Below, piece by piece: positions 9,531 to 36,265 of a stretch of 64,000 nucleotides of DNA (its first letter is position 1; each line of letters begins with the position of its first letter). Made by a program: the position numbers and the translations under genes. Source of the stretch: a virus. Taxonomy: Duplodnaviria > Caudoviricetes. The stretch is taken from positions 1 through 64,000 of IMG/VR virus record IMGVR_UViG_2855946969_000005; one strand, 5' to 3'. Below the pieces are notes generated by a model. The model did no database searches, was not told the origin of the DNA, and saw only the letters and a program-made list of their open reading frames with translations.

Positions 9531-9611
9531 CTTCGGAGGAGGGGTGGCGCGGATGGCGGGGAGGGCGCAGTGGAGCGCCGATCAGAGGGCTAGCGTATGC
9601 ACTCGGAGCCC

Positions 9612-9764
9612 AGATGCGACAAAGGCCCGGCGTCGCCGCCAGGCCCTCGGATCTAGTCTCGGTTGTGCGTCAAATTCTCGGTGGGGGCAAGCGGTTTGGG
9701 TCGCGCCCGGCACCGGAGAGATGCAGGGTCATCTATGCCGCAAGATCCAAGCCCGGTCTAGGGG
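9612..9764 (-). promoter_or_regulatory. conserved ~150 bp non-coding element upstream of resumed tail genes, copy 1
   Basis: Collinear with 19726-19881: AGATGCG, AAAGGCCC, CGGTTGTGCG..AAATTCTCG, CAAGCGGTTT, CCGGTCTAGGGG. Confidence 0.65.
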
Positions 9765-9800
9765 ATTGGTTTCAGGCGCCACAGAGAGACAGATACGAAA

Positions 9801-9828
9801 GAGCCCCGCCGGCGGGCCGGCAGGGCTC
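9801..9828. terminator. GC-rich hairpin downstream of the PemK-like gene
   Basis: GAGCCCCGCCGGC-GG-GCCGGCAGGGCTC with AAA on the + side, giving a U-tract on the minus strand. Confidence 0.5.
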
Positions 9829-9935
9829 GTTCTGAAGCTGATTCCACGTCGGCGCCAAGACGTGTCGCAACTCCCAAAGCCCCTTCCGGGGACACGCTGG
9901 ATATAGCGTGCGGGCGAATCGCTTTCAATCAGAGG

Positions 9936-10370
9936 TCAGAGACCGAGCGCGGCGCGGAGGCCTGCCTCGACACGCGCCATGTCCCACGGAGCCAGGAACT
10001 CGCCTCGGTAGCCCTGACCCGCGAGAACGCGGTCCAGCCTCGCGTGCGACACTCTGATGGGCGAAGCGCAACTCGCCCAGACATCCTTCGTGAAGGCTCG
10101 GTAGGATCGCGCCAGGAAGGGAACATCCCAGGGACCCTCCGTCCGAGGTGGCGTCGAGGTGCACGGAACAACGGTGCAGAGCCCCGGGCCAGCGCCGTGC
10201 CGGTGGTTGAGCCTATCGTCTGACACGACGATGGCCCGCCTGTTCTTCCATACCTCGGGAGCCGCCGAGACTGGCGGCTCATAGACAGGGAAGGTGTGCG
10301 GGTTCAGTGGGTCGGGCCCGAAGTAGCACATCAGGATTGCGCCACGGCGGGGCGTGAAGGTGATAGGCAC
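9936..10370 (-). CDS. PemK/MazF-family toxin
   Basis: PITFTPRRGAILMCYF...PE.WK.R.AIVVS...LCTVVPCTST. GTG start at 10370 inferred. Confidence 0.75.
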   Translation of the reverse strand: MPITFTPRRGAILMCYFGPDPLNPHTFPVYEPPVSAAPEVWKNRRAIVVSDDRLNHRHGAGPGLCTVVPCTSTPPRTEGPWDVPFLARSYRAFTKDVWASCASPIRVSHARLDRVLAGQGYRGEFLAPWDMARVEAGLRAALGL

Positions 10371-10377
10371 GATCGTA

Positions 10378-10800
10378 TCAGCGGCCGTGAGCTTGAGCGT
10401 CGGCGCAACTCTCAAGACAGCGCATGATCCACGCATTGAGCGACTGCCCCCTGGCGGAGGCCAGAGCTTCGATCCTGCTCTTCAGACTGTCGGGGATGCG
10501 AACCGTCACTCGGCTTTCGGCCTCACCTGCCTCAGGCTGAGGACCGAAGTGGCGTTCGATCAGATGGGCGAAGCGATGCTTTTCCATCCAAGACTGCGCC
10601 TGTGCTGGCGACAATGGTTCGATGTCCTCAAGCATTTCCTCGTGCGGCCCGCCATAACTCCAGTCACCGTGGTGGCGGAAGTATGCGCCGTGACGGGTCT
10701 GATACAGCGTGTCATGCAAGTGGCCGCCGTCCTGTTCGGCTTTTGCCAGCATCGTCGCCGTTTCAGTGTTGTAGGTCTTCCCGTCCAAGATGCGTTTCAT
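10378..10800 (-). CDS. probable antitoxin with C-terminal Arc/HicB-like ribbon-helix-helix
   Basis: C-terminal RVTVRIPDSLKSRIEALASARGQSLNAWIMRCLE. Directly upstream of the toxin. Confidence 0.7.
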   Translation of the reverse strand: MKRILDGKTYNTETATMLAKAEQDGGHLHDTLYQTRHGAYFRHHGDWSYGGPHEEMLEDIEPLSPAQAQSWMEKHRFAHLIERHFGPQPEAGEAESRVTVRIPDSLKSRIEALASARGQSLNAWIMRCLESCADAQAHGR

Positions 10801-10823
10801 CGCCTGCCTCACTTGGCGCACTC

Positions 10824-10869
10824 ACATGACGTCATGTAAAGGACTTGGCGTCATGTGTCAACAGTTGAC
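10824..10869. promoter_or_regulatory. palindromic operators upstream of the TA pair
   Basis: ACATGACGTCATGT and GTCAACAGTTGAC palindromes. Confidence 0.5.
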
Positions 10870-10935
10870 GTCGAGTGATGCATGGCTCCGCATGCCGCTA
10901 CCGCTCGGTAAGCAGGACGAGCCTATGCTCAGGGG

Positions 10936-11355
10936 ATGCGTGCCTCTACCGCCATGCTCGCCTGCCTAACTGCCCTGGTCGCGGCTGAGCCTGTCCGCGC
11001 GCAAGGTGCCCTGCATCCAGACTGTCGATGGTCGAAGGGCATGCGTGCGGATCCAACTCGCGAGTGCCCCGGCGATCCGGTCCTGCCCGTAGAACTGCCC
11101 CGCTACGATGTAGAGGCCGCGTGCCGCCGGCAGAACTTCAACCCTTCAACGTGCGTCGAGTATGTCCAGCCCTACTACGACCAATTGAAGGAAGTTTGGC
11201 TGCACTTGGACGAGGACCTGAAACGGCGCTGCACTGAGAAGTACCGCGAGAACATCCACGCCCGATACGTTCAGATCCACGCCTGCATCGACGCCGAACT
11301 CACGAGGCGCGAGCATCAGGACAAGCAGCACAACCCGACGCGCTTCCGGTACTGA
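10936..11355 (+). CDS. exported Cys-containing hypothetical protein
   Basis: Signal peptide (MRASTAMLACLTALVAAEPVRA), 6 Cys in the mature part. Confidence 0.7.
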   Translation: MRASTAMLACLTALVAAEPVRAQGALHPDCRWSKGMRADPTRECPGDPVLPVELPRYDVEAACRRQNFNPSTCVEYVQPYYDQLKEVWLHLDEDLKRRCTEKYRENIHARYVQIHACIDAELTRREHQDKQHNPTRFRY

Positions 11356-11363
11356 CCTGCTCG

Positions 11364-11420
11364 GACTTCTCCTCCCCAGATTACCCCTTGTTCAGGTTCG
11401 CGCGTTATGGGTGAGCCATG
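11364..11420 (+). promoter_or_regulatory. repeated 54-bp leader before exported-protein genes, copy 1 of 4
   Basis: GACTTCTCCT..ATTACCC.T.GTT....TCGCGCGTTATGG...CCATG. Other copies start at 11807, 14905 and 32835. Confidence 0.75.
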
Positions 11421-11792
11421 TACGCTCGTCTCGCTCCTCGCTTGATCACAGGTCTTTTGCTGCTGACCTCCAGCTTCGCGGCGGCTGCCGAAGACCAATA
11501 TGATCGCGATCTGCCGTATCTATTCAGCTGCGTGAACAAGAACCTGGGCGATCTGATCCCATCCGGGGAGCCGATCAAGACTATCAATGAGGCGGTACTG
11601 GAAATCTGCGAAAGCGAATTTGACCGCGCGCTAAATGAAATGACACGCGCTGCACTCAAGGATCCCGAGCGACCGCCCCACCTTACAGAGCGCCAAGTCT
11701 ATGCCTTCTTCAATGAGAAGATGCGCAAGATGCTGTTGGCCTATGCAATCAAGTTCAAGGCGACGGGCGGGCCTACCAGCTTGTCTAGATGA
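11418..11792 (+). CDS. exported hypothetical protein
   Basis: Signal peptide LITGLLLLTSSFAAAA, 2 Cys. Confidence 0.7.
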   Translation: MYARLAPRLITGLLLLTSSFAAAAEDQYDRDLPYLFSCVNKNLGDLIPSGEPIKTINEAVLEICESEFDRALNEMTRAALKDPERPPHLTERQVYAFFNEKMRKMLLAYAIKFKATGGPTSLSR

Positions 11793-11876
11793 TCCCGGGC
11801 CGACTCGGCTTCTCCTTCCCGCATTACCCTTCGTTGAGGATCGCGCGTTATGGAGAGACCATGCGCGCCTACGGCC

Positions 11877-12185
11877 TCAGTCGCGCTCCGCCCTTTCCCA
11901 CAAGAAGGACAGGGCTTGGTTGATCGCCTCCTCGGGAGTGTCACGATTCGTCCAGGGCAGATCCCAGTCGGCCCAGACCATCATCTTGACACGGCTCTCT
12001 CCGGTGCCGGGGTAGACGAGATCCGCATAAATCTCGCGCTGTATGTAAGACACAGTCGAGAATGTGCCGCGTAGGTTGTCACGCGCAACAATCCGGATGT
12101 GCTCGGTCACCCCGTTGACGCGAACGTAGAGTTCGACAGTCTTTGCAATCTCGTAGAACTCGGAGACGCCCTCGCGATTATACAT
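11877..12185 (-). CDS. hypothetical protein
   Basis: 102 aa, overlaps the stop of the XRE gene, protein-like composition. Confidence 0.55.
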   Translation of the reverse strand: MYNREGVSEFYEIAKTVELYVRVNGVTEHIRIVARDNLRGTFSTVSYIQREIYADLVYPGTGESRVKMMVWADWDLPWTNRDTPEEAINQALSFLWERAERD

Positions 12186-12420
12186 TCGTAGGCTCCTTCA
12201 ATCTCACGCCAGGGCCGCCCCCATTCTGAGAGATGAACTCCACGCCGGCCTCCTCAAACGCGCGCTGAACCGCCGCCAGGTTATTCGCCGAGGGCACGCG
12301 TCGGCCCTTCTCGAAATCCCGGATCGTGCTCTCGCTCAGGTTTGACAGGCGGGCGAGCTGCATCTGCGGCCAGTCCAGAAGGCCCCGAGCGGCCCGCGAC
12401 TGCGCGGGGGTGAGTGACAT
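12178..12420 (-). CDS. XRE-family HTH regulator (island 1)
   Basis: MSLTPAQSRAARGLLDWPQMQLA...TIRDFEKGRR...GVEFI...GGGPGVRL. Confidence 0.9.
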   Translation of the reverse strand: MSLTPAQSRAARGLLDWPQMQLARLSNLSESTIRDFEKGRRVPSANNLAAVQRAFEEAGVEFISQNGGGPGVRLKEPTNV

Positions 12421-12525
12421 AACGGCTCCATATCTCGGAAACCGTTTAGCACACACGGAAAGCGTTGACAGCGCCTAATTTCCACGGTATCCGTTGGTGG
12501 CACACGGAAACCGAGGGAAGCAGAC

Positions 12526-12822
12526 ATGTCCGTCCGGACCATCTCCTGGAACGCCGCCCTCCGCGATCTCCGCGACGACCGCACCAAGGTCCCAGCCGGC
12601 TTTGCAGGCTCCCGCGCCCTGGCGCAGACTTTCATCAAGACCCGCCGCCTTCCGCTCGTCGTCGCCGGTCAGTACGATCGCTCGGCCATCATGCAGGTCG
12701 CGATCCTCGCGGCGAAGGCGCACCAGGGCCGGTACGGCTCGACCTGGGGCGAGGCGCTCTCCGTCTCGCTGAAGGCGACGTGGCAACTCGCTAAGGCGGC
12801 GCGCGCCGCAACCCGGCACTAG
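12526..12822 (+). CDS. hypothetical protein, paralogue of 24773-25063
   Basis: RT.SWN.ALR...LVVAGQ.DR.AIM...RYG.TW.EA.SV.L.A.WQ...ATRH shared between the two copies. Confidence 0.8.
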   Translation: MSVRTISWNAALRDLRDDRTKVPAGFAGSRALAQTFIKTRRLPLVVAGQYDRSAIMQVAILAAKAHQGRYGSTWGEALSVSLKATWQLAKAARAATRH

Positions 12823-12890
12823 CCGACGCCGGGCACCTATACCCGGCACTCCCCCAACAATCTGTCTGCCCAACCCCAGGAGGTGAACCC

Positions 12891-13322
12891 GTGGGAATGA
12901 TAAACCGTGTCTCGAACCGGCGGGGGGTGCTTGCCGGGCTGGCGGCAGCACCCTTCGGAGGCGCCGTAGCCGCTGCTGTGGCGGCAGATCCTGATGCGAC
13001 CCTACTCGCGCTCGGAACCCGTTTTGAGGCCGCCTGGGCGCACGAGCGGAAAACGGACGCCCGATTCAAAGGCGACCTCTCGGCCGAGGCAGTCGCAGCC
13101 TGTGAGGCGGCGTACGCGGCCACGGGGCTGATCGCGGAAGAGATCGAGCCGATCCGCGCAAACACGCTCGCAGGCCTCTACGTTCGCGCCCGCGTCCTAC
13201 TCTGGTGCATGGGAAGCGATCCACTGATTGCTGAGCAGTTCTCAGACAGCCCGCCCGCTACCGACGTTCGAATGATCGTCAGCCTTGCGCAGGACGTGCT
13301 CCGGATCGGCGCCGCCCCGTGA
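12891..13322 (+). CDS. twin-arginine-like hypothetical protein
   Basis: NRRGVLAGLAAA...PDATLLALG...ANTLAGLYVRAR. Confidence 0.7.
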   Translation: MGMINRVSNRRGVLAGLAAAPFGGAVAAAVAADPDATLLALGTRFEAAWAHERKTDARFKGDLSAEAVAACEAAYAATGLIAEEIEPIRANTLAGLYVRARVLLWCMGSDPLIAEQFSDSPPATDVRMIVSLAQDVLRIGAAP

Positions 13323-13753
13323 CCTACGAAGAACTGATCGCCTCGCCGTTATGGGCGAGGCAGCGCCAGGAGGCGCTCGCCCGCGACGGCTTCCGCTGCC
13401 GGGGCTGCGACACGACCGAGGATCTTGAGGTCCACCACCGCCGCTACGGCGACCCGCTGGGGACCGAGACCGTCGACGATCTGACCACCCTCTGCCGGGA
13501 ATGCCACCATGCGATCACGGAAGTCATCCGCCGCCGCCGCTCCGCCGGACGCGCCCACATCGTCCCAGAAGCCGCACGCCGCATCCCAGGCGCTGCCGCA
13601 GGCTTCAGCGCCGAAAGGCTACCAGCGCCTCAACTTCAGGCTCACCGGCGTGTCCGGCCTGGTCATGCACAACGGCCAACTGGCGAACCCGCTGAACCCC
13701 TTCGCGAAGGCGCTGAAGGCGGTCTCGGGCAAGCGAGCGAAGACGGACGCTGA
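13319..13753 (+). CDS. HNH endonuclease
   Basis: RDGFRCRGC....LEVHHRRY...DLTTLCRECH. The C-terminal half overlaps the next gene in another frame. Confidence 0.8.
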   Translation: MTYEELIASPLWARQRQEALARDGFRCRGCDTTEDLEVHHRRYGDPLGTETVDDLTTLCRECHHAITEVIRRRRSAGRAHIVPEAARRIPGAAAGFSAERLPAPQLQAHRRVRPGHAQRPTGEPAEPLREGAEGGLGQASEDGR

Positions 13754-14183
13754 CTTCGAGGAGATGGCCCGGATCGAGTTCCTGGGCGGCCTCTACGTCG
13801 GCGAGGACGGCCCTTGCATCCCGGGCGAGTTGATCGAGGCCACGCTGATTTCGGCGGCCAAGAAGGTGAAGCGCGGCCCGCAGGCAAAGGCCGGCATCCT
13901 CTCGGATGGCAACCACCCGATCCTCTACGATGGCCCGCGCAACCCGGACGCCCTCTGGGCCGAGGAGCGCTTCCGGCTCGTGGCCGGCGTGAAGGTCGGG
14001 CAGGCTCGCATCATGCGGACGCGGCCGATCTTTCGCGAATGGTCGGCCGACGTGTTCGTGGATTTCATGCCCGACGCGCTCAACGCTTCCGAGGTGGAGC
14101 AGATGATGCGCACGGCGGGTTCGGTGATCGGCCTGGGCGATTGGCGCCCCAGGTTCGGACGGTTCACAGCCGAGAGGCTGTGA
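13509..14183 (+). CDS. stand-alone Cas7/RAMP-like RNA-binding protein (Vipr-like effector)
   Basis: First strand FRLTGVSGLVMHN, CIPGE.IEATL..AA, RTRPIFREW, and C-terminal Gly-rich loop AGSVIGLGDWRPRFGRF. GGY-NN arrays begin immediately downstream. Confidence 0.75.
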   Translation: MRSRKSSAAAAPPDAPTSSQKPHAASQALPQASAPKGYQRLNFRLTGVSGLVMHNGQLANPLNPFAKALKAVSGKRAKTDADFEEMARIEFLGGLYVGEDGPCIPGELIEATLISAAKKVKRGPQAKAGILSDGNHPILYDGPRNPDALWAEERFRLVAGVKVGQARIMRTRPIFREWSADVFVDFMPDALNASEVEQMMRTAGSVIGLGDWRPRFGRFTAERL

Positions 14184-14185
14184 AG

Positions 14186-14278
14186 GGCCTGTCGGGGCTG
14201 GTCACGGCTGGGTGCGCCATGGTCAGGCGAGGCGGGGCAAGGCAGGGGTGAAGGGCGGCTTCGGCCGTCCTTCCGCCT
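14186..14278 (+). ncRNA. putative guide RNA 1: 13 x 5-nt GGY-NN units plus terminal hairpin
   Basis: GGCCT GTCGG GGCTG GTCAC GGCTG GGTGC GCCAT GGTCA GGCGA GGCGG GGCAA GGCAG GGGTG, then hairpin GAAGGGCGGC-TTCG-GCCGTCCTTC and CGCCT. Confidence 0.8.
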
Positions 14279-14338
14279 GATGACTGTGAACTCCCATCGC
14301 GGATGAGCGCGATCGGCGTCCACAGCGTGGACGAGCCA

Positions 14339-14440
14339 GGCGGGCTAAGGCACGGCATGGCAAGCTGAGGCAAGACCGGGTTCGGCTTGGCAAGGCGAGG
14401 CAAGGGTGAAGGGGTCGGCTCGCGCCGGCCCCTTCCGCCT
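14339..14440 (+). ncRNA. putative guide RNA 2: 14 x 5-nt GGY-NN units plus terminal hairpin
   Basis: GGCGG GCTAA GGCAC GGCAT GGCAA GCTGA GGCAA GACCG GGTTC GGCTT GGCAA GGCGA GGCAA GGGTG, then hairpin GAAGGGGTCGGC-TCGC-GCCGGCCCCTTC and CGCCT. Two small hairpins precede it (14296-14313, 14317-14333). Confidence 0.8.
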
Positions 14441-14479
14441 TCCACCAGTCGGTAAGGAGAACGAGATCAGTATGCCCGC

Positions 14480-14896
14480 ATGGGCATTCTGCGCGGCCTC
14501 CTCTTGCTCGTCATCATCTTCGTGTTCGTGGCCATGCGCCGCGATCCGCCGGAACCTGATCCCGAGCCGGACCGCAACGTCACGGTCATCGAGAAGAACG
14601 TGCAGCCTCCGGCCGGGCGGCCCCCGCGTGCTGAGCCAAAGCCTCAGCCGCAGATATCGCCCACACCACAGGGCGCCGAGCGGCCCAAGCTTCAGTGCAT
14701 GATCACGCGAGCCGGCAATGGCTCGTACTCGTCCTATGATGGGGGCAAATCGGCGCTGGCCATCATGATGGCATGTCCGAACGACTATGCTGCGTGGGTC
14801 GCCTATTGTGAGACGAGCGGCCCGAACGAAGACGGGAGGTGCGATGTCGCTTTGGCTACCATGGTGCAGGTGATGCTGAAGCAAGCGGGGCGCTGA
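14480..14896 (+). CDS. membrane-anchored periplasmic hypothetical protein
   Basis: N-terminal TM segment, Pro-rich linker, 4-Cys domain. Confidence 0.65.
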   Translation: MGILRGLLLLVIIFVFVAMRRDPPEPDPEPDRNVTVIEKNVQPPAGRPPRAEPKPQPQISPTPQGAERPKLQCMITRAGNGSYSSYDGGKSALAIMMACPNDYAAWVAYCETSGPNEDGRCDVALATMVQVMLKQAGR

Positions 14897-14958
14897 CCCG
14901 CGCAGACTTCTCCTCCGGCTATTACCCTTCGTTGACGCTCGTGCGTTAAGGGCAGGCT

Positions 14959-15327
14959 ATGCGCGCTGCCCTCACCCTTATCTCCGTGCTGAGCCTAACC
15001 GTCAGCGCGCTAGCGGCTGAGCGAATCCCATCTTTTCCGAAGCGGACCAGTTACGACGACGCCCGAAATAGCCTGCGTGCGCTCGGCTGGGCGCCAGTCG
15101 TGCAAACGGGCCAGCGCTGTGGGACGGATGGTTGTTACGAGCGGTGCGCGCCAGGATTTGAAGCTCGGTGCCTCACCTACCCCGAGACGGCCATCTGCCG
15201 CGGGACAGGCTTGGCCGCCTGCGAGTTCCTGTGGAAGCGAAACGATGTGCTGATCGAGATCCGGACAATCGGTGAGGATGATCCGCCTACTGTCGCCGGG
15301 GTCAGTTGCAAGGTTAATTGTAGATAG
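14959..15327 (+). CDS. exported Cys-rich protein, candidate muramidase inhibitor
   Basis: Signal peptide, Y..AR..L...GW.P...C..YPE...C.GTG...C.F.W. Convergent with tape measure copy 2. Confidence 0.7.
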   Translation: MRAALTLISVLSLTVSALAAERIPSFPKRTSYDDARNSLRALGWAPVVQTGQRCGTDGCYERCAPGFEARCLTYPETAICRGTGLAACEFLWKRNDVLIEIRTIGEDDPPTVAGVSCKVNCR

Positions 15328-15358
15328 CCCCTGAGGCGTTGGCGCCCCAGGGTTCATC

Positions 15359-18280: not shown

Positions 18281-18282
18281 GC

Positions 18283-19209: not shown

Positions 19210-19218
19210 TCGGCTTGC

Positions 19219-19656: not shown

Positions 19657-19725
19657 GGGTGCTCCACACGCCCGCGGATGCGGGCGCCTTAGAAGGCTTT
19701 GAATGAGAAGGGGGGGGCGTGCGCG

Positions 19726-19881: not shown

Positions 19882-20060
19882 GAGCCAAGATCGCAGCGCC
19901 CCCTCGGCCCGGCAAGTACGGCGCCGATGGAGTCCAGGGGACGGACCGCATCAGGCTATATCTCAAATCGCAGTCGCACCGTAGCATCAGAGGCGCATTA
20001 GGTCGTATCAATCGAGCCGCCGTCAATCAGTGCGGCTCATTAAGAGGTCCGGGGGAAGCG

Positions 20061-26243: not shown

Positions 26244-26291
26244 CGCGCCGTCTCGCCCGTCTGCCTGCCCCTCAAGCCTCAGGAGCCATCC

Positions 26292-26699: not shown

Positions 26700-26763
26700 G
26701 GCGCGCACCGTCCCGCCCGTCACCCCTCAATTCTCGACACCCCGGAGCCAAGGAGGCCCACCG

Positions 26764-28291: not shown

Positions 28292-28328
28292 TCGCGCCTC
28301 GCTCCCTCGCACCTCTGGAGCCCACACC

Positions 28329-29009
28329 ATGGGATCAATGAATCACGCTCCATCGCGCCGGGGCATGCTGGCGGGCCTCGCGGCCGCGCCGCTGGCCGCG
28401 CTGCCGATCGCCACGGCAGCATTCGCCCTGAACCCCGATACTGCCCTCCTGGCGCTCGGCCGGCGCTGGCGCGAGGCGGTTGCTGCACGCGAGGCCGTCA
28501 GCGAGCATGCGGATGCGTGTGCAACCGCCGCGCACCGCGCCGCGCCGGGACTTCCCGAGGCCGTGCTGTACCGGGAGGGCGATGACGCCCTCGACATCGC
28601 CCACTTCACCTCAGCCCGCGGCGACGGGCGGCGCTGGTACAGCGTCGGCACCAGCGCCTGTGACGGGAAGGCATCTTGGATGCGGGCGATGGTGCATGGG
28701 CCGCAGACGCCGCGCGCGGTGCGCGCGACCGAGATCGTCGCAGCGTTCGATGCGTGGCGCGCCGCCTGCCAAGCCACACACGACGCATGCGGGCTGACGG
28801 CCGCGGATTCGGCTTGGGAGGAGGCCTGCGAGCGCGTCAGCGAGATCGAAGACCACATCAGCGCAGCGACCGCCCACACGCCTGCTGGGCTTGCCGTGAA
28901 GGCGCGCATCGCTGAGCAGGACATAGAGGCCGGCAACAAGCCTGCCCAAGCCCTGCTGGCCGGTCTCGTGCGCGACGTTCTCGCCATCGCTGAACCGGCC
29001 GGATCGTAG
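28329..29009 (+). CDS. twin-arginine-like hypothetical protein
   Basis: SRRGMLAGLAAA...PDTALLALG...AHTPAGLAVKAR. Confidence 0.7.
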   Translation: MGSMNHAPSRRGMLAGLAAAPLAALPIATAAFALNPDTALLALGRRWREAVAAREAVSEHADACATAAHRAAPGLPEAVLYREGDDALDIAHFTSARGDGRRWYSVGTSACDGKASWMRAMVHGPQTPRAVRATEIVAAFDAWRAACQATHDACGLTAADSAWEEACERVSEIEDHISAATAHTPAGLAVKARIAEQDIEAGNKPAQALLAGLVRDVLAIAEPAGS

Positions 29010-29017
29010 GGGAGGGG

Positions 29018-29566
29018 ATGGCTATGGCCACCGCATCGCAACGAAATTCGTCGGCTGACGCTGTTGCCCAAGCCGCCCGCGCCGCGCTGAAAACGGCCAA
29101 TGGCGATGTCCGCACCGCTTCGGTCGCGCTCGAGGCGCGCGTGCGCCGGGATCGCGCCTTGCGGGACGCGCTCACCGATCCCTTGCTCGCCACCGCCTGC
29201 TACACGGCCGTGGCCGTTCAAGTCCGGCAGGCTCGGCGTTCGGTTTGGGCTGCACCCGCGGCGTCCCGCCAAGAGGCCGCGGCCGCGCCTCAGCGACGGG
29301 CCCCGGAGGATGCGCGCCGAGTCGCTCAGCTCGCGGCCGGCACGCTGGCCATGTTCCCGTTACCCGGCGGCAAGCGCCTCGGTGAGGCGACCCGGGAGGA
29401 GATTGCCGCGGCGGCCTCGTTCTACGAGGCGCAGAGCGCGGACATGGCGGACAAAGCCCGATGGCTCCGCCTGATCGCCCAGAGCGTGCCGCACGCGAAG
29501 AAGGTCGGCGACGTGCTCAACGAGCGCCGCTTGCGCGAATTGCAGACGGAGGCGCGTCGTGGATAG
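29018..29566 (+). CDS. hypothetical protein translationally coupled to the Tas-like gene
   Basis: FPLPGGKRLGEATREE. The stop overlaps the GTG of the next ORF. Confidence 0.65.
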   Translation: MAMATASQRNSSADAVAQAARAALKTANGDVRTASVALEARVRRDRALRDALTDPLLATACYTAVAVQVRQARRSVWAAPAASRQEAAAAPQRRAPEDARRVAQLAAGTLAMFPLPGGKRLGEATREEIAAAASFYEAQSADMADKARWLRLIAQSVPHAKKVGDVLNERRLRELQTEARRG

Positions 29567-30566
29567 GATCGAGTTGCCGGGCAAGCCCCGGCGCGGCCGG
29601 GCGGCCAGAAGGGATTTGTCCCCCAATGATGGCACGCCGCCCGCCGCACCCCATTCCGAGATCGGCGCCAGCGCCGATCGCGAGGCCGGCCACTGTTCCG
29701 ATGCGCCCCATAGAAGCGCTGCCGGTCTCGCACCCCATTCAGAGATCGTCAGCCGCGAGGCTGGCGAGGGCGAGGTCGGCCCTTCGTCCTGCGAACCCCA
29801 AGTACCGCCTGCCGACCTCGCCGACCAAATCGCCGAGCTCCGTGAGCAGTGGCGCCGCCGCCAAGCCTGGCATCGCGCTGAGAAGGCGCTGACGCTTCAG
29901 GCCAAGGCGCTGTGCCGCCGCCTCGCGGAGGGCGGTGACAAGGCGGAAGCGGATCGCATCTACGGCGCCGCCTACGGCAAGGGCTCGCATCCTCTGGCCG
30001 ACATCGCCCTCGCGGCGACCTTCCCGTTAACCGAGGCACGGGACAGCATCGCGAAGCACCGGGCGGCCGTGGAGAAGCGGCTCGTCAAGCTGGCGAAGGC
30101 GCTCCCGGTCGCGCCGTGGGTCGAGGGTACGCGCGGCGTCGGGCTGCTCTCGCTAGCAGCGATCGTGGGCGAGGCCGGCGATCTCGGCGCCTACGCGAAC
30201 CCGGCCAAGCTATGGAAGCGCATGGGTCTGGCCATCATGCCGGATGGGCGGCAGCGGCGGACCACGGGAGCGGCGGCGCTCGACCATGGGTATTCGCCGG
30301 CGCGGCGCTCCGTCGTCTGGAATATCGGCGCCTGCATCATGAAGGCTGGCGGGCCGCTGAAAGAGATCTACGACGCACGGAAACTATACGAACTGCCGCG
30401 CGTCGAGACGAAAGGACATGCTCACAACCGCGCTCAGCGGTACGTTGAGAAGCGATTTCTTCGCTTGCTCTGGTGCGAGTGGAGAAAAGGCGGGGGCGAC
30501 CACCGCGGCCCTGACACCCATAGGACGCGTGTCGCCTCCGTCACCCCCATTCCGGACGCCGCGTGA
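29559..30566 (+). CDS. IS110-C-terminal/Nop-like RNA-binding protein lacking RuvC (TIGR-Tas-like, nuclease-less)
   Basis: Coiled coil followed by GVGLLSLAAIVGEAGDL..Y.NPAKLWKRMGLA...RR...GYSP.RRS and H..A.RY..K.FL..LW. No DEDD RuvC domain. Flanked by dual-spacer hairpin units. Confidence 0.75.
   Translation: MDRIELPGKPRRGRAARRDLSPNDGTPPAAPHSEIGASADREAGHCSDAPHRSAAGLAPHSEIVSREAGEGEVGPSSCEPQVPPADLADQIAELREQWRRRQAWHRAEKALTLQAKALCRRLAEGGDKAEADRIYGAAYGKGSHPLADIALAATFPLTEARDSIAKHRAAVEKRLVKLAKALPVAPWVEGTRGVGLLSLAAIVGEAGDLGAYANPAKLWKRMGLAIMPDGRQRRTTGAAALDHGYSPARRSVVWNIGACIMKAGGPLKEIYDARKLYELPRVETKGHAHNRAQRYVEKRFLRLLWCEWRKGGGDHRGPDTHRTRVASVTPIPDAA
29598..29822 (+). ncRNA. three TIGR-like stem-loop dual-spacer units
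   Basis: Units 29598-29643 (GAAGGGATT/ATGATGGCA), 29680-29731 (CTGTTCCGA/TAGAAGCGC) and 29769-29822 (TTCGTCCTG/AGTACCGCC). Each has a 30-nt CA-N9-TGN4CCA-N9-T core (minor variants) closed by a GC stem. Confidence 0.8.
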
Positions 30567-30627
30567 GCGGCGAGGCGGGCGCGCCCAGTGGCACTCTGGC
30601 GCCCTTATCAGGAATGGCGCGCCCGCC
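30491..30627 (+). ncRNA. two TIGR-like stem-loop dual-spacer units
   Basis: 30491-30540 (CCGCGGCCC/TAGGACGCG) and 30574-30627 (GTGGCACTC/TATCAGGAA). Confidence 0.8.
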
Positions 30628-30780
30628 GCCCAACTACCCCGCCGCGAGCGCAGCCCGGCAGCTCGACGGCCCGCGGCAGCGGGCGGCGCTCCCCGCCTTC
30701 GTGAGGCGCCGCCTCGTGGAGGGCGCCTGAGTGCCCCTCCGCCACGCCCTACTGCGCCGCATCCTCAAGGGAGACGACCC

Positions 30781-31332
30781 ATGCAGAACGTCGTGACCGT
30801 CCCGTTCCACGCCGACACCGTGTTCGCCGTCGAGCGCGCGGATGGGGTCTACATCGCCCTCAAGCCGATCGCCGACCGGCTCGGGCTCGACTGGTCCGCG
30901 CAGTACCGCCGAACCAAGCGCGATGTGGTGATGGCCCGAGGGATTGCCGTCATGGCAATACCTTCCGAGGGCGGCACGCAGGACGCGCTCTGCCTCCGCC
31001 TGCCACTCCTGCCGGGGTGGCTGTTCGGCATTGAGGTCCGCCGCGTGCGGGCCGAGTGCCGGGCCGCCGTGCTGGTCTATCAAGCCGAATGTCACGAGGC
31101 TCTTTTCCGGCACTTCTACGGCGTGGCGGACCGGGCGCCCGAGGCGCCGGACGCCCGGCGCGAGCCGCTGAAGGTGCGGCGGCAGATCGTGACGGAGGCC
31201 CGGCTGATCTTCGGGCCGCGGGCAGCTGCGGCGCTCTGGCGTTCGCTCGGCCTACCCGACGTGACGGAAATGGGCGCGCCGCCGGATCAAGGCGCGCTGC
31301 CGCTGGCACCGCCGAGCCCGCCTGCGCCTTAG
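30781..31332 (+). CDS. phage antirepressor (P22 Ant N-terminal-like domain)
   Basis: VPFH...YIALKPI...LGLDWSAQYRR...GG.Q...CL.L..LPGWLFGI...YQ.EC..ALF.HF. Confidence 0.85.
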   Translation: MQNVVTVPFHADTVFAVERADGVYIALKPIADRLGLDWSAQYRRTKRDVVMARGIAVMAIPSEGGTQDALCLRLPLLPGWLFGIEVRRVRAECRAAVLVYQAECHEALFRHFYGVADRAPEAPDARREPLKVRRQIVTEARLIFGPRAAAALWRSLGLPDVTEMGAPPDQGALPLAPPSPPAP

Positions 31333-31374
31333 GGCCACCTGACAGCGGGCCACGGGCGTCTCTGACTTCCAAAT

Positions 31375-31389
31375 GTTCTTGTTTTGTGC
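31375..31389 (+). promoter_or_regulatory. degenerate LexA box
   Basis: GTTC-TTGTTTT-GTGC, one mismatch from GTTC-N7-GTTC, 15 bp before an ATG. Confidence 0.5.
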
Positions 31390-31403
31390 TAGAGGCGAAG
31401 CTA

Positions 31404-32786
31404 ATGGGCGCTCCACCTCCGACGATCTACACCATCTACACCATTACTAATACCGTCAATGGTAAGATATATGTAGGACGCTCCAAAGAATATGAGCGCA
31501 GAAAACAAGCTCACCTGAATTGGTCCCGTCGTGGCGACAAGCCAAGGCATCCTCTATATAACTCAATCCGCAAGTACGGTGAGGAAGTTTTCGCTTTTGA
31601 AGTGATTGCGGATCTGGCCGGGTACGAAGAGTCTTTAGCGGCTGAGAAGACTCTGATATCGGAGCTGGGGACAACCAAACGAGATCGGGGATACAACATA
31701 TCCGATGGAGGTGAGGATATCCTATCTGCTATAAAAGCCAACGTCGCGCGGATAGAATTATGGAGGAAAGAGGATCCAGAAGGGTTCAAGGCTTACTATT
31801 CAGCCTTGAACAAGGCCGGCTGCGCTAGCCTGACCTTGGAGGCGAGGCAAGCAACAATACGGAAAGCCCATATAACAATGGGGCCAGCTGCAATGCGCGC
31901 CCGATTGTCAGCGACCAGAGCCGCACTGTCCCCGGCGGACCTGCGGGCCAACGCCGCGAAAGCACTCGCCACCCTCGGGCCCGAAGGTCGGAAAGCACGA
32001 GCACGCGCCGCCGTGGCCACCCTCGGTCCAGAGGGGCTAAGCGCCCGCGCCAAGAAAACGGTCGCGGCACAATCTCCCGAAGCGCGGAGCGATGCGCGCA
32101 GGCGTTCATGGAAGGCTCGGCGGGAGACATGGGCCAAACGTGCCGAACAAATCGGGCCGCCACCGACAATTACAGGTGCTCAACTGTTCGCCGCGCGGGA
32201 TCAATTGGGCTGGTCACGCCCTCGACTGTACGAATTGACAGGTGTAGGGCGCGGGACGATTGAAAACTTTGAGACAGGCGTTCGGCCAATGCCAGTCCAC
32301 AAGCTTGCGAAGATCGAGCGCGCCTTGACTGAGGCCGGCGTAGAAATATGTCATATTTCTGAGTTGTCTTCCGAATATACAGCCGACTTTAGTCCCCAAA
32401 ACCTGCCAATTTACCGCGAGAGGGCCAAGATTACGCAGGACGCTCTCTCGGAGATATCAGGTGTTCCAGCTTGGTTGATCAGGGATTACGAGCGGGGCGC
32501 CCGACCGATGCCCGGCTACAAGCTCGCCAAGATCGAGCGGGCCCTTGTCGCGCTCGGGCTTGACCTTGCGGTGCCGATCAAGCCCGAGCCGTCCGCCCCG
32601 GCCGACTTCGGTCCAGAGGAGGTAGCGCGGCGCAGAAAGGCGCTGTCGTGGTCTCGGGTCCGCCTATCCGAGGCGTCCGGCGTCCCGGTATGGTTGATCC
32701 TCGACTATGAGCACGGCAAGCGAGGCATACCGCCGAGGAAGCTCGCTCGGATCTGGGGCGCACTCACAGCGGGCACGCAAGACTGA
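31404..32786 (+). CDS. GIY-YIG endonuclease fused to helical repeats and three XRE-like HTH domains
   Basis: IYTITNTVNGKIYVGRS...R...H, IRKYG, GYN, repeats ATLGPEG, and three R..LGWSR..L/SGVP.WLI.DYE.G.R units. Confidence 0.75.
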   Translation: MGAPPPTIYTIYTITNTVNGKIYVGRSKEYERRKQAHLNWSRRGDKPRHPLYNSIRKYGEEVFAFEVIADLAGYEESLAAEKTLISELGTTKRDRGYNISDGGEDILSAIKANVARIELWRKEDPEGFKAYYSALNKAGCASLTLEARQATIRKAHITMGPAAMRARLSATRAALSPADLRANAAKALATLGPEGRKARARAAVATLGPEGLSARAKKTVAAQSPEARSDARRRSWKARRETWAKRAEQIGPPPTITGAQLFAARDQLGWSRPRLYELTGVGRGTIENFETGVRPMPVHKLAKIERALTEAGVEICHISELSSEYTADFSPQNLPIYRERAKITQDALSEISGVPAWLIRDYERGARPMPGYKLAKIERALVALGLDLAVPIKPEPSAPADFGPEEVARRRKALSWSRVRLSEASGVPVWLILDYEHGKRGIPPRKLARIWGALTAGTQD

Positions 32787-32888
32787 GGGGACCGCACCGG
32801 CCGGTCGAGCGCCGGGACCGGCTAGACCCGCCCGGACTTCTCCTGCCGGCATTACCCTTCATTGACTCTCGCGCGTTATGGGTTGGCC

Positions 32889-33311
32889 ATGCGCGCCGTA
32901 GCCGTAATCACCATCGCTGGGCATCTCCTCTGGTCCATGTCGGCCGCTATGGCCGAAGATGCGCGCCCGCCCGGCATCTACCTGCGAGACACCATCCAGA
33001 CACCAGCGGGATCTGCAGCATTCTCGGATCTGCTAAAGCAAGAAGCGAACGTGCCGCCGTGGTTGGGGAAATTTATAAGGGATGGTGATGGCATTGATAT
33101 GCCATTCAGACTTGTTCGAATAGACGGCGAGAAACACTATTATTCCAGAGTATGCCGACCCCGCGCATGTTGGCAGGACGAGGTCAACATACTGTTTACC
33201 GCAGACATGGCTCATGCTTGGGGCTATCGCCTTGAGAACGGGAAGCCTCACTGGGTTGGCTACGTGCCCCCTACAGTGAAGCGCGCCATCCTCAAGGCGC
33301 AATCCGAATAG
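32889..33311 (+). CDS. Ivy-family lysozyme inhibitor-like exported protein
   Basis: Signal peptide, P.W, CRPRAC resembling the Ivy CKPHDC loop, LFTAD..HAWG, W.G..P. Convergent with tape measure copy 1. Confidence 0.7.
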   Translation: MRAVAVITIAGHLLWSMSAAMAEDARPPGIYLRDTIQTPAGSAAFSDLLKQEANVPPWLGKFIRDGDGIDMPFRLVRIDGEKHYYSRVCRPRACWQDEVNILFTADMAHAWGYRLENGKPHWVGYVPPTVKRAILKAQSE

Positions 33312-33313
33312 CA

Positions 33314-36265
33314 CTAAGCATATCGGTTCTGGAACTGTCCGATCATATTGGAACGTTGTCGATTCTCAGCGCCAATTACCTGATCTGCTGCGGTCTTCGG
33401 CTCAGAGACGCCATTGACGGTCGTCGTGCGAGTTCCCTCATTGAATACTCGATTATCAATGATGGTCTTGCCTGCAGATGTTCCGCCGGCACCTAAAGGT
33501 GCAGTCTCGAACGCCGGCCGCCGCCGCCAATTGTCGACGGCATCGAGACGTGAAGGACCCTTGCCGAGAGACGTTTCAGCTTGGTCCATCCAAGCTCGCG
33601 GATAGGCGATCAGGGTTTGCTCAACCTTGCCGGCCGTGTCGAGCGCTACACGCTTCAGTCGATCAACGGCAGCATCGACCTCAGGCGAGGCCGCACTCTG
33701 CTTCCGCTCCAGGGAGGACTGAGGATCGACTAAGTTGCCATCCTTATCCCTCAACTCGAGATGAAGGTGCGGGCCTGTGGACCTACCGTCAGTGGGCCCA
33801 ATTTTTCCAATTTGTCCGCCACCCTTTACCGCGTCTCCATTTCGGACGCTCGGCACAATGTGACGATATGTCGAAGAAGACCCGTCCGGGTGCCGTACGG
33901 TTACATCGCCTTCGCGGTTAATCGACACGATGCCATCGCGCATCGCCTGCACATCTGTCCCCTCGGGGGCTGCCAAGTCGATGCCGTTGTGATGCTTCAT
34001 CTCGCCTGTTTTGGGATGACGGCGCATCCCGAACCGGGAGGAAAGCCGGCCCTGGCCGCCTAGAGGATGATGCCCTCTCTCAACGGCGCCGCCCTCCTCC
34101 GGCTTGCCCTTGACGATTGGGAGCCAGCCTCGTGCGTGCGCGCCCCGGTTGCCCTCCTCGCCGACCCCATACCGCTCAAACTCGCGGATTCCCTCCATCG
34201 CGTGGTCAAGGTCGCGCGGGTTGCGGAGGATCTTGCCAGCTTTCTCGGTCCGCCGGCTGTCGTAGAGCGGGTCGCCGGGCTTGGCATCGAGTTCTGCGAT
34301 GGCGCCCTTCGTCTGCCAGCGTGCGTCGTAGGGGTCGCCACCCTGGTCCTCAATCCACTTCTTGATCTTGGGCCAGCGGTTCTTGTCCCATTGGAACAGG
34401 CCGGTGTGGCCGCCCGCCACCTCGTTGCGCGCACGAGGGTTGAAGGTGCTTTCGGTCTGTGCAGAGCCGAGCATGGCGGCGATCGCCTCATCGGAGTACC
34501 CTGCGGCGCTCAACTCCTCCATCATAGCCCGCGCATTCCCATTCTGCGCGAGCTTACCGATTCGGCTTGTACCGCCCCCAGCCGGATCCCCACCGAGTCC
34601 GACCTTCTCCTTCACCCAACCGAGACCTCGGCTGACGATGTTGGGCCCGCGCGCAGCGTCCTGCGAAGTCTGCCCGTAGATCCGATCTGCGATGCCCGGA
34701 TCAAGCGTGCGGAGAATGCTCTCGTGCCATGACCGGGAGCCGGCGCCGCCGTCGAGGATCCCATTGTCGTTTGCCACCTTCGCCGCGACGCCGACGCCCA
34801 GGAGCGCGAGCATCCACCCCGGGGGACGCATGCTCCCGAGGGAGCCAAGGAGGCCGACGACCTTCCCGAGCGGGGCCAAAACCTTCGCCGTGAGCACCAC
34901 CGCGAACGCTGCGAACGCCACGGTCAAGCCGTCCTGCCCGGTCAACGCCTTCGCCGCGCGATCGAAACCTTCCCAGAGTGACTTGAGCGCCGCTAGTAAA
35001 TTCTCAACGGCCGGGGCCCATTTGTCCCAATCGACAAGATTGTCTGTCGAGCCCTCGCGCCACTTCTTATAATCGTCGTAGAGGACGACGATGGCCGCCG
35101 AGAGCGCCAACAGAGCTGCGACAGGCCCGCTCTTGAGGAAAAGCAGTGCCCCCGCAATCGCTGCCATTTGCAGAACGAAGGATCGCGTACCGGGATCGAG
35201 GCGCGTAAATGCCTCCACCAAATCCACAACACGCTTCGCGAGCCGAAGGAGCGTTTCCCCAATGTTGATTACGGATTTCGTAATCTGATCGGCGTTGTCG
35301 TGTAGGTACTTGGTGAATCGTTCGATCTGCGCAGAGAACTTGTCGAATACCGCGCCACCGATCCGGATTTTCAGGCCGTCGATAGCCGCGAACATGCGAC
35401 GCATCGCATTCTCGAACACGACCGCGCCAGCCGCAGCCTTGTCCGGATCGACGCCCATCTTGGCGAGACTGTCGTTGTATTCCTTGGTGAGCTTATCTAC
35501 TTCGTTGCTGCGAAGCATGCGAACGAGATCTTCATGCAGACCCATCGCATTGGCGAAGGAATTGGCCTGATGCCGCGGCTGCTCTGTAAAAGCACGCTTC
35601 AGTTCTTCGATAAGCTTTACAGTGCCGATGAGGTCGCCATTGGCATCCCGCGTCTGGACCCCAAGGTTTTTCAGCATCGTCTCATAGCCAGGGGAGTCGC
35701 GCATGTTCTTGGCGAGCGCTTCGACTGACTGAATTGCAGTCTCAGACGATACGCCCAACTGCTCCGCCGCATAGGCGAACGCCTTGAGATCTTTGACGCT
35801 GCTGTTCGTGCGCTTGCTCGTATAGTACGCACGCTCCAAGCCGGACGCGATATTGTCCACAGCCGCCGTAATACCGACCGCGGCGGCCTGGATAGCCGCC
35901 ACCATCGCCAAGGAGCCCTTGACGAAAGCCGCAGTGCGGTCTTCATGGGATTGCGCAGCGCGCTTGTTGGCTGTGGTCTCGGTCTCCCGAGCCTCCGCGC
36001 TCGCCTTCGCGGCTTTCGCTTCGGCCGCCTGCTGGCGCTTCAGGTCGGCGATGTGGGCGGCGGCCCCCTTCGTCCTGACGCCGCGCTCGCGGTTGGTCTC
36101 GATGATCCGCTTCGCCGCGCCCTGCACGGTCGCCTTCGTGGCGCGCGACTCTGCCACCTCGACAGCGGACGCCACCTCGTCCGGCGCCGCCTTCGCGCGC
36201 CGGACGCTGGCCTCATCGACCTTGAAGCCAAGGGCGTAAAAGAAGTCCTGAAGTATGTTGTTCAC
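33314..36265 (-). CDS. tape measure protein copy 1 with phage tail lysozyme and M23 peptidase domains
   Basis: Follows the tail chaperones. GYS.EAIAAMLG....ES.FNP.A....G..GLFQW...R, HNGID and TGPHLHLE. Confidence 0.85.
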   Translation of the reverse strand: MNNILQDFFYALGFKVDEASVRRAKAAPDEVASAVEVAESRATKATVQGAAKRIIETNRERGVRTKGAAAHIADLKRQQAAEAKAAKASAEARETETTANKRAAQSHEDRTAAFVKGSLAMVAAIQAAAVGITAAVDNIASGLERAYYTSKRTNSSVKDLKAFAYAAEQLGVSSETAIQSVEALAKNMRDSPGYETMLKNLGVQTRDANGDLIGTVKLIEELKRAFTEQPRHQANSFANAMGLHEDLVRMLRSNEVDKLTKEYNDSLAKMGVDPDKAAAGAVVFENAMRRMFAAIDGLKIRIGGAVFDKFSAQIERFTKYLHDNADQITKSVINIGETLLRLAKRVVDLVEAFTRLDPGTRSFVLQMAAIAGALLFLKSGPVAALLALSAAIVVLYDDYKKWREGSTDNLVDWDKWAPAVENLLAALKSLWEGFDRAAKALTGQDGLTVAFAAFAVVLTAKVLAPLGKVVGLLGSLGSMRPPGWMLALLGVGVAAKVANDNGILDGGAGSRSWHESILRTLDPGIADRIYGQTSQDAARGPNIVSRGLGWVKEKVGLGGDPAGGGTSRIGKLAQNGNARAMMEELSAAGYSDEAIAAMLGSAQTESTFNPRARNEVAGGHTGLFQWDKNRWPKIKKWIEDQGGDPYDARWQTKGAIAELDAKPGDPLYDSRRTEKAGKILRNPRDLDHAMEGIREFERYGVGEEGNRGAHARGWLPIVKGKPEEGGAVERGHHPLGGQGRLSSRFGMRRHPKTGEMKHHNGIDLAAPEGTDVQAMRDGIVSINREGDVTVRHPDGSSSTYRHIVPSVRNGDAVKGGGQIGKIGPTDGRSTGPHLHLELRDKDGNLVDPQSSLERKQSAASPEVDAAVDRLKRVALDTAGKVEQTLIAYPRAWMDQAETSLGKGPSRLDAVDNWRRRPAFETAPLGAGGTSAGKTIIDNRVFNEGTRTTTVNGVSEPKTAADQVIGAENRQRSNMIGQFQNRYA

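Follow-up and report, generated by a model that had tools for sequence, protein, structure and literature searches.

The stretch of DNA analysed here, referred to below as the window, comprises bases 1-64000 of a linear virus record of 99,285 bp (IMG/VR record IMGVR_UViG_2855946969_000005, 90% complete according to CheckV) and contains the tail operon of a contractile-tailed phage, in which the genes for the tape-measure protein (TMP) and the baseplate hub are each present as two paralogous copies, arranged as collinear direct matches in self-BLASTN comparison and repeat search. An island of accessory genes adjoins the 3' end of each TMP gene, and each island holds an RNA-guided system, VIPR in island A and TIGR-TasA in island B. 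The backbone common to both islands consists of a divergent XRE gene, a phrog_36439 gene, twin-arginine proteins, a nuclease gene and an exported protein encoded behind a 70-nt leader.

Unit A, on the minus strand, consists of TMP-A (882 aa; open reading frame (ORF) 15359-18007, with the frame extending to 18343; PF01551; phrog_2276, E 1e-62) and, on the other side of island A, a Dit-like protein (8847-9530; PF21821, E 2.5e-22), a plug protein (8519-8836; PF22479, E 2.4e-15) and hub-A (309 aa; 7593-8522; phrog_196, E 8e-57, with a weak match to PF22759). Unit B, on the same strand, begins directly after the gene for a tail assembly chaperone (TAC) with DUF6889 and consists of TMP-B (983 aa; 33314-36265; PF18013 (Phage_lysozyme2), E 3.5e-20; PF01551 (M23), E 1.2e-19), island B, a Neck1/tail-completion-like ORF (19219-19830, with a likely start near 19659; phrog_222, E 1.5e-8 over residues 62-184) and hub-B (308 aa; 18283-19209; phrog_196, E 3e-59). 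The Neck1-like ORF, which has relatives in the loci L009, L010, L028, L029 and L036, was considered as a Dit paralogue and rejected, being unrelated to Dit and matching phrog_222 (Neck1) instead.

Nucleotide identity between the units is 71% over 868 nt of the TMP genes (16691-17554 versus 34604-35467), including 300 nt at 79%, 68% between the hub genes (7595-8525 versus 18285-19212) and 71% between the first plus-strand genes of the islands (12534-12820 versus 24778-25061). At the protein level, TMP-A and TMP-B are 51% identical, hub-A and hub-B 71%, the two phrog_36439 proteins 62% and the two XRE proteins 45%, which bears out the paralogous first gene with a divergent XRE gene that the initial annotation had described. 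Its conserved 150-bp element was also recovered, as two copies of 75% identity (9621-9764, ~90 nt upstream of Dit, and 19740-19881); in both units the first tail gene behind the island begins 80-90 nt downstream of this 144-nt conserved element.

The division of the operon into two parallel units, likewise proposed from inspection of the DNA, was reproduced by the self-comparison as far as the collinear TMP, hub, first gene and 150-bp element are concerned; it does not extend to Dit and plug, of which neither self-BLASTN nor protein comparison found a paralogue in unit B, or to the start of TMP-A. The annotated start of TMP-A is a GTG at 18007, but the frame is open for ~112 codons further, to 18343, through a stretch that contains no ATG, GTG or TTG, is homologous to the N-terminus of TMP-B and overlaps the stop codon of hub-B. 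The open frames of TMP-A (995 codons) and TMP-B (983 codons) are both intact. The central parts of the two proteins are near-identical and an M23 domain is common to both, but their lytic inserts differ: next to its M23 peptidase, TMP-A has an unnamed lysozyme-like domain that matches PHROG endolysin families.

RNA-guided systems of the two islands

Island A holds a VIPR system: next to the gene for a Cas7-like RAMP protein lie an HNH gene and two GGY/NN arrays, each with a conserved tail at its 3' end. The vipr gene (13509-14183, plus strand, with a homologous core at 13626-14183) encodes a minimal RAMP that matches phrog_4652 (E 2.6e-52), a family without assigned function, and Vipr has 2063 homologues in a large protein database. 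The AlphaFold2 (AF2) model of Vipr, built from 38 homologues, has a pLDDT of 93.5. In an exhaustive structural search with VIA-align the 17 best matches were all CRISPR RAMPs (Z 10.2 for Cmr4, 10.1 for Csm3 and 9.9 for gRAMP; rmsd 3.0 Å over 143 residues), and the best Foldseek matches were Csm3 (E ~1e-4, TM-score 0.42-0.52). A G-rich C-terminal loop is invariant across the 38 aligned homologues.

Array scans located a vrRNA1-like array with a GGYNN tract of 8 units (14206-14245, tail to ~14280, plus strand) and a vrRNA2-like array with a tract of 11 units, two of them imperfect (14350-14404, tail to ~14447, plus strand), the tracts starting 23 and 167 nt behind the stop codon of vipr. These are the only two GGYNN runs of at least six units on either strand of the 99-kb record, compared with 0.11 runs per record under a Markov null. 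A common tail motif follows both tracts, and its hairpin arms differ between the two in a compensatory way. All three of the Vipr-homologue loci compared, those of Pseudomonas phage Medea1 (L051), Mycobacterium phage LittleE (L052) and Felixounavirus bumzen, have one to five GGYNN arrays adjoining the gene on the same strand, and no array was found in any other locus of the 504 kb scanned altogether. The Medea1 locus lies between the tail-tip genes K and I, with a divergent helix-turn-helix (HTH) gene, an antirepressor and a lipoprotein, and that of LittleE immediately follows the tape measure, on the opposite strand. VIPR loci may commonly reside in tail-operon islands.

The 5' end of vipr is overlapped by an HNH endonuclease gene (13319-13753, plus strand; PF01844, E 3e-5; HNH PHROGs), which is a candidate vap gene or homing nuclease; its match to IscB is at the domain level only (34.7 bits versus a cut-off of 175). 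Fusion of HNH to Vipr was considered and rejected, as 11 longer Vipr homologues (226-286 aa) contain no Pfam domain.

In the preprints on VIPR (bioRxiv 10.64898/2026.04.26.720920; 10.64898/2026.10.15.759431), the system combines Vipr, a minimal RAMP of phages, with a Vap partner and with vrRNAs, in which 9-16 GGY/NN pentamers precede a conserved 3' tail; the vrRNAs recognize DNA through a 1-nt-skip code, and the elements silenced are competitors, satellites above all. Nuclease-bearing VIPR types are stated to be enriched in cellular defence islands, and HNH-domain Vaps are named in the legend of figure S21. The locus in island A resembles described systems such as that of coliphage SUSP1 in its phage-borne minimal RAMP of Cas7 fold and in the RNAs of ~100 nt, GGY/NN pentamers with a structured 3' tail, that are predicted directly downstream of vipr. 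It differs in having the overlapping HNH gene instead of a Vap1-type partner, in having two vrRNAs only, one of them with 8 clear units, and in its position in an island that adjoins a tape-measure gene.

Island B holds a TIGR-TasA system, composed of a Tas-fold protein and of five strict and one degenerate stem-loop guide units. The tasA ORF (29559-30566, plus strand) matches NF052498 (TIGR_Tas_endo, E 3.2e-26) and IS110 (E 2e-9). Its conserved part (247 aa, domain from ~29823) is all-helical in an AF2 model with a pLDDT of 85.9, and the ten best Foldseek matches of this predicted fold in the PDB are TasR or TasH (E 2.4e-7 to 1.3e-4, TM-score 0.61-0.66), aligned over their Nop/coiled-coil part and followed by IS110 recombinases. 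No nuclease domain was found in TasA among Pfam domains at E values up to 5; thus the protein is of the TasA-like subtype. The 88 residues ahead of the conserved Tas domain are encoded by the array.

Each unit consists of a ~10-bp stem and a loop of 30 nt (29 nt in one unit) that reads CCA, 9 nt, UG, CCA, 9 nt, UG. The record contains five strict units (loop starts 25646, 25732, 29606, 29691 and 30501), all on the plus strand of island B, whereas 200 shuffles gave a mean of 0.05 and a maximum of 2. Two units (25636-25685, 25722-25770) are located in an upstream part of the operon, between genes (gap 25595-25824), and four lie within the reading frame of tasA: three in its 5' 260 nt (29596-29645, 29681-29730 and the degenerate 29767-29818) and a sixth (30491-30540) in what is the disordered C-terminal tail of the TasA model. 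The strict pattern occurs once in 449 kb of other loci, beside the Tas homologue (63% aa identity) of prophage L035. Between the units of the window and of L035, stems are kept by compensatory changes and spacers differ, as spacers also do between the units of one locus.

In L035, tas and a homologue of c182 are placed between TMP and Dit. The c182 gene, of 182 aa, is directly upstream of tasA in the window and in L035 (12101-12607), with 55% aa identity, and its conservation suggests that it may be a Tas partner.

According to a preprint on stem-loop TIGR arrays (bioRxiv 10.64898/2026.09.09.750476), such arrays have two ~9-nt spacers bounded by CCA and UG in a stem and may sit in disordered regions of the tas frame. 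Compared with the published systems (Faure et al. 2025, PMC12045711; Xu et al. 2026, bioRxiv 10.64898/2026.09.09.750476), the locus in island B is likewise phage-borne and encodes a solo protein that combines a Nop domain with a coiled coil; within the stem of the guide units, CCA (box C) and UG (box D) bound two 9-nt spacers, and units are found ahead of the gene as well as within both of its ends, where they leave the frame unbroken. In contrast, its HMM (hidden Markov model) score is just under the NCBI cut-off, its units are spread over 5 kb of a long operon, two of them lying 4 kb ahead of tasA, and c182 accompanies tasA both here and in another prophage; the host group, Rhizobiales prophages, does not appear in the parts of the TIGR descriptions that were available.

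Neither kind of array was picked up by Tandem Repeats Finder, Rfam at gathering thresholds or a tRNA scan, because both array types lack repeat conservation, and PADLOC (2023) has no model for VIPR or TIGR-Tas. Both loci had been recognized in the initial annotation, as a RAMP with GGY-NN repeats plus HNH and as Tas/TIGR plus GIY-YIG, and these assignments are upheld by the fold and array scans for the former and by the HMM match, the fold and the stem-loop units for the latter.

Origin of the two units

The GC content of third codon positions (GC3) is 0.89-0.96 in the core structural genes, 0.90 in vipr and 0.81 in tasA. In TMP-A it is 0.87-0.98 from 18343 down to ~16850 and then ~0.6 below ~16750; in TMP-B it is 0.59-0.89 overall and 0.59-0.83 over most of the gene, in hub-B 0.63 and in the Neck1-like gene 0.65. 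These codon-composition values point to the insertion of a foreign block of 18 kb, extending from TMP-B to hub-B, ahead of the native TMP. At ~98% identity, 17183-18270 is matched by contigs of runs X2, X3 and X6, which end at 18270 and near 16755 and include hardly any of island B; X2 and X3 cover 16755-19161 and a few short pieces only. On sequence comparison, the C-terminal lytic third of TMP together with the adjoining island looks like a cassette that varies among relatives.

The contexts of hub genes in other genomes (23 examined) comprise 13 full tail operons, eight small elements, one ambiguous case and one orphan. The small elements (L009, L033, L037, L038, L039, L032, L034, L007) are of ~15 kb and have an integrase or recombinase, a primase/helicase and mostly a large terminase; they carry the hub and usually a lysozyme-domain TMP of 620-740 aa, and lack genes for capsid, portal, sheath, tube, Dit and plug. 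One of them carries a DUF2213 protease-like gene. To judge from gene content, they possibly represent a satellite family of Rhizobiales myoviruses that has not yet been described. The hub gene is directly followed by TMP in five of the eight (L009, L033, L037, L038, L039), and L038 also has the layout of a convergent phrog_36439 gene with a divergent XRE gene. In comparison with satellites that carry tape-measure and baseplate genes (F5-like), the relatives' elements likewise combine an integrase with a hub gene, followed in the five by a TMP homologous to that of the helper-type myovirus, and the window shows this hub-then-TMP adjacency too; the differences are that the relatives' elements also carry a large terminase and a primase/helicase, and that the 18-kb block, although it resembles such satellites, has no integrase.

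The reading favored for the whole, with a probability of about 75%, is that the islands carry a VIPR and a TIGR-TasA system and that the two units result from insertion of the 18-kb foreign block. The block (TMP-B, island B, Neck1-like gene and hub-B) would have entered between the TAC genes and the native TMP, stripping TMP-A of its start codon while leaving its 995-codon frame intact, and TMP-B would have taken over the expressed position. The source of the block would be a related phage or a satellite-like element carrying hub and TMP. The initial annotation had suggested a recombinant of two related phages or an integrated hitch-hiking element; the breaks in codon composition and the satellite-like hub-TMP contexts of relatives agree with this.

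Several results weigh against the favored reading. With regard to the systems themselves, tasA scores 92.6 bits with NF052498, under the NCBI cut-off of 100; vrRNA1 has 8 clear units, compared with the 9-16 reported for vrRNAs; tblastn found in neither island a homologue of the conserved partner gene that Medea1, LittleE and bumzen have in common; and the HNH gene could be a homing endonuclease with no connection to the system. With regard to targets, the tigRNA spacers have no match with up to two mismatches in 603 kb, and only chance-level matches with three mismatches within the record. The best matches of the two vrRNAs under the 1-nt-skip rule, 13/16 and 17/22, are within the shuffled-guide null. 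The 17/22 matches of vrRNA2 fall at homologous, codon-phased positions near the C-terminal ends of the two TMPs, the skipped base coinciding with the wobble position, which is suggestive, but equally high scores were reached by 25 of 100 shuffled guides. Searched in full, the pattern of vrRNA2 gave no exact match in IMG/VR and, with up to three mismatches allowed, none in 146 Methylobacterium genomes. With regard to expression, none of the listed sequencing runs is recorded as RNA.

With regard to the origin of the block, neither Pfam nor PHROGs matches revealed an integrase, a primase or a second terminase in the 18 kb, and the hub-then-TMP order occurs also in two full phages, L008 and L011; for these two reasons a satellite origin is a lead only. 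Hub-A and hub-B are closest to each other (71% identity, versus at most 46% to any relative). Finally, comparison with relatives for single-unit versions, by which the initial annotation was to be checked, found no close one in any collection searched: the hub protein has matches in 175 phage records (all below 60% identity), 46 plasmid records, four IMG/VR loci (at most 45%), three loci of GTDB genomes and two metagenomic loci, and in 26 of 401 genomes of a family sample (best 46%), while TMP-A has matches in 31 of 146 genomes of the genus (best 65%, over one domain).

A more specific version of the favored reading is tentative and rather unlikely to hold in full. It states that a helper myovirus absorbed, by recombination, the hub and TMP module of its satellite at the 5' end of its TMP gene, that the incoming TMP displaced the native one, that VIPR and TIGR-TasA, silencers of different origin in paralogous landing sites beside the two TMP genes, police related satellites and phages, and that the lytic domains and their inhibitors are attack-and-immunity cassettes. 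If true, this would be the first instance of VIPR and TIGR-Tas at work side by side and the first satellite module fixed inside a helper.

The mutual closeness of hub-A and hub-B also fits an old tandem duplication in place, now fixed, in which both TMPs and both hubs are used (for instance in two versions of the tail or tip, or to lyse with different specificity) and the islands are hotspots for ordinary morons. In favor of such a duplication, the units are collinear, and neither TMP frame is interrupted, their lengths of 995 and 983 codons being similar. The sharp GC3 break inside TMP-A and the foreign composition of hub-B and TMP-B are at odds with it, as are the missing canonical start codon of TMP-A, the absence of Dit and plug from unit B, and the relatives in runs X2, X3 and X6, which keep the N-terminal part of TMP-A at ~98% and are without island B; this explanation is considered improbable.

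Slightly less probable again is that the RNA-guided loci are decayed remnants and that the active agents are the HNH and GIY-YIG homing endonucleases, the toxin-antitoxin pair and the exported proteins. Decay would account for the failure of the searches made to find guide targets or a Vap1-type partner, for the degenerate tigRNA unit, the two imperfect units of vrRNA2 and the 8 clear units of vrRNA1 against the usual 9-16, and for the splitting of a neighboring DUF4238 gene over two frames. Against decay, vipr and tasA are intact, with confidently predicted folds and high GC3 (0.90 and 0.81), two vrRNA tails are conserved, and stems stay paired through compensatory changes while spacers differ. 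Moreover, failure to find natural targets is usual for TIGR systems, according to the preprint on stem-loop arrays (bioRxiv 10.64898/2026.09.09.750476).

It is very unlikely that the record is an assembly chimera in which the assembler linked two strain variants of a single phage head to tail, an outcome that the initial annotation had named as one of its refutations. The record is a linear IMG/VR entry, a second X1 contig diverges left of 16764, and X1 cover is absent in bins 16000-16666 and 34676-35342, but X1 contigs from another assembler bridge 16860-19582, stretches up to 27539, and 32856-34574 with 0-14 differences each; thus the junctions within 16860-19582 and 32856-34574 are real. 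This bridging concerns the inner junctions, the TAC/TMP-B junction and island A being outside the comparison. In addition, the copies share 68-79% identity and no exact match longer than 24 bases, not enough to mislead an assembler, and the stop codon of hub-B overlaps the TMP-A frame as at a natural junction.

Equally improbable is a recombination switch between the TMP copies, the easy loop-out of ~18 kb with a swap of the muramidase domain that had been expected from the direct repeats (868 nt at 71%, 300 nt at 79%): efficient RecA-type recombination needs a minimal identical length, and the longest exact matches are 20 nt in the TMP genes, at or below that minimum, and 24 nt in the hub genes, so that efficient homologous excision of 18 kb is unlikely; no X1, X2 or X3 contig joins TMP-A to TMP-B across the block; and the sole X6 record with both TMP-like pieces is a diverged relative, whose TMP-B-like piece differs at 99 of 500 letters.

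Other genes of the islands and of the record

On the minus strand, the part of island A nearest to Dit contains a MazF/PemK-like toxin (9936-10436; PF02452, E 1.1e-7) and an antitoxin-like protein of the ribbon-helix-helix type (10378-10821; PF05534, PF01402). These are followed on the plus strand by two small exported proteins with signal peptides recognizable by eye, exp139 (10936-11355) and exp124 (11418-11792). XRE_A (12178-12456; PF01381, E 8e-8; PADLOC 'control protein', E 3e-12) and a downstream gene of 102 aa (11877-12185), both on the minus strand, are divergent from the operon of island A, which on the plus strand comprises phrog_36439 gene A (12526-12822; E 1e-29), the twin-arginine protein RR143 (12891-13322, with an RR motif in its translation), the HNH gene, vipr, a membrane protein (TM138, 14480-14896) and a cysteine-rich exported protein (exp122, 14959-15327) that is convergent with TMP-A. 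A homologue of exp122 is also convergent after TMP in the Methylobacterium prophage L011.

In island B, cargo genes occupy 19815-24451, with small plus-strand genes at 21421-22759 and minus-strand genes at 22805-24451. They include the DUF4238 gene, of 49% GC, which is in two plus-strand frames (19815-20723 and 20615-21256; PF14022, E 1.6e-24 and 8e-6); the frame breaks near 20620-20720, and an extra T behind 20627 in X1 contigs may restore it. A piece of ~150 nt inside a small plus-strand ORF (21574-21726) is found also in runs X2, X3 and X6, which are without the rest of island B, and appears twice in X1, where its depth doubles.

XRE_B (24448-24933, minus strand) is divergent from phrog_36439 gene B (24701-25063, plus strand), behind which lies the plus-strand c139 operon (25824-29566), with four twin-arginine proteins (26292-26699, 27129-27512, 27509-28291, 28329-29009) and c182 (29018-29566). 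The five twin-arginine proteins of the two islands have a Tat-like N-terminus followed by a helical region, as seen in their translations, and are weakly related to each other; neither they nor c139 and c182 match any family in Pfam, PHROGs, NCBIfam or PADLOC. Behind tasA, the plus-strand region 30418-32786 encodes an antirepressor (P22_AR_N, likely 30781-31332; PF10547, E 9e-27) and a GIY-YIG endonuclease with three HTH domains (likely 31401-32786; PF01541, E 6e-7; PF01381 in three stretches) that also matches homing-endonuclease PHROGs. The last gene of the island, convergent with TMP-B, encodes an exported Ivy-like lysozyme inhibitor (32889-33311, plus strand; PF08816, E 1.5e-7) with a signal-like N-terminus in its translation; residues 48-124 score 32 bits with PF08816 against a cut-off of 21, but the NCBIfam equivalog NF007443 scores 17 bits, far under its cut-off of 180.

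The 70-nt leader was found by the repeat search in four plus-strand copies, each terminating in ATG. Three of them precede exp124 (11354-11420), exp122 (14895-14966) and the Ivy-like gene (from 32825); the copy at 11800-11869 has no long ORF behind it. Convergent exported proteins with a shared leader had been noted in both units from the letters alone, and the leader is indeed common to them, but exp122 and the Ivy-like protein, compared as possible homologues, are unrelated. In unit A, a terminator-like hairpin of 12 pairs (9801-9828, minus strand) precedes the 150-bp element, which, to judge from its position, may be a restart promoter or the 5' region of the downstream tail genes. A scan of 9400-15400 for sigma-70 promoters gave no matches, with 1.2 expected by chance, and so the workings of both the leader and the element are inferred.

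According to Pfam matches over the whole record, the contractile-tailed phage is complete and coded on the minus strand, with the terminase (46791-48329), portal, Mu-F, DUF2213 and cement proteins, the major capsid protein (41562-42611), a DUF3383 sheath (37522-39162), the tube (36977-37444) and the TAC with DUF6889 (36283-36965), while Baseplate_J, DUF2612 and a DUF2793 fiber are encoded further down the tail operon. Outside the window are DnaB, ThyX, Ros/MucR, GapR and a ParA/RepB pair at the end of the record, a set that suggests a phage-plasmid lifestyle in an alphaproteobacterium. The pair consists of a ParA-type ATPase and a RepB/ParB partition protein at 96791-99027 of the record (12791-15024 of locus L004), and by means of these partition genes the phage may be kept as a plasmid. 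The nearest homologues of two island proteins are from Methylobacterium, Microvirga and Bosea. The record is probably that of a temperate myovirus with plasmid-type partition genes and a Methylobacterium-like host.

A serine recombinase is encoded at 54773-55639 of the window and an ISL3 transposase at 67.3-68.6 kb of the record. A third RNA-guided nuclease family is represented by an intact TnpB/IS605 OrfB gene (57351-58490, plus strand) with OrfB_IS605, Cas12f1-like TNB and HTH domains, which sits in a low-GC patch.

Possible roles in conflicts between phages

In line with the literature on VIPR and TIGR systems, which agrees with the initial description of the region as a hotspot of inter-phage conflict, the VIPR and TIGR-TasA systems of the window would silence genes of competing phages or satellites; since no targets were found, this role is inferred by analogy with published work. 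The lytic third of each TMP and the convergent exported protein would form an exchangeable cassette; when relatives superinfect, their tail lysozyme may be blocked by the exported protein. In unit B, the Ivy-like gene is directly behind a TMP carrying a lysozyme domain. The Spackle protein of phage T4 is a periplasmic inhibitor of the tail lysozyme gp5 and gives superinfection exclusion. In comparison with Spackle and with the Ivy-family lysozyme inhibitors, an exported Ivy-family protein is here encoded right behind a lysozyme-domain TMP; the difference is that the second unit has an unrelated cysteine-rich exported protein and a different lytic domain. By this analogy, the exported proteins may inhibit incoming tail lysins and so lead to superinfection exclusion.

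Each of the two systems is a further member of a recently described family, and what is new is the arrangement, namely their pairing in paralogous islands of a duplicated TMP/hub module. In the literature searched, vrRNA and TIGR-Tas occur together in a single paper, with one mention of each. Descriptions of VIPR and TIGR-Tas date only from 2025-2026, and a single phage with one of each at equivalent positions, beside duplicated TMP and hub genes, is of interest, the more so as TMP and hub are the two structural genes carried by the only characterized VIPR-targeted satellites. The stretch is likely to be an arsenal for fights between phages and their parasites, and the record provides a concrete system in which to study the targets of the guides, the division of labor between the two systems, and islands adjoining tape-measure genes as a home of inter-phage weapons.

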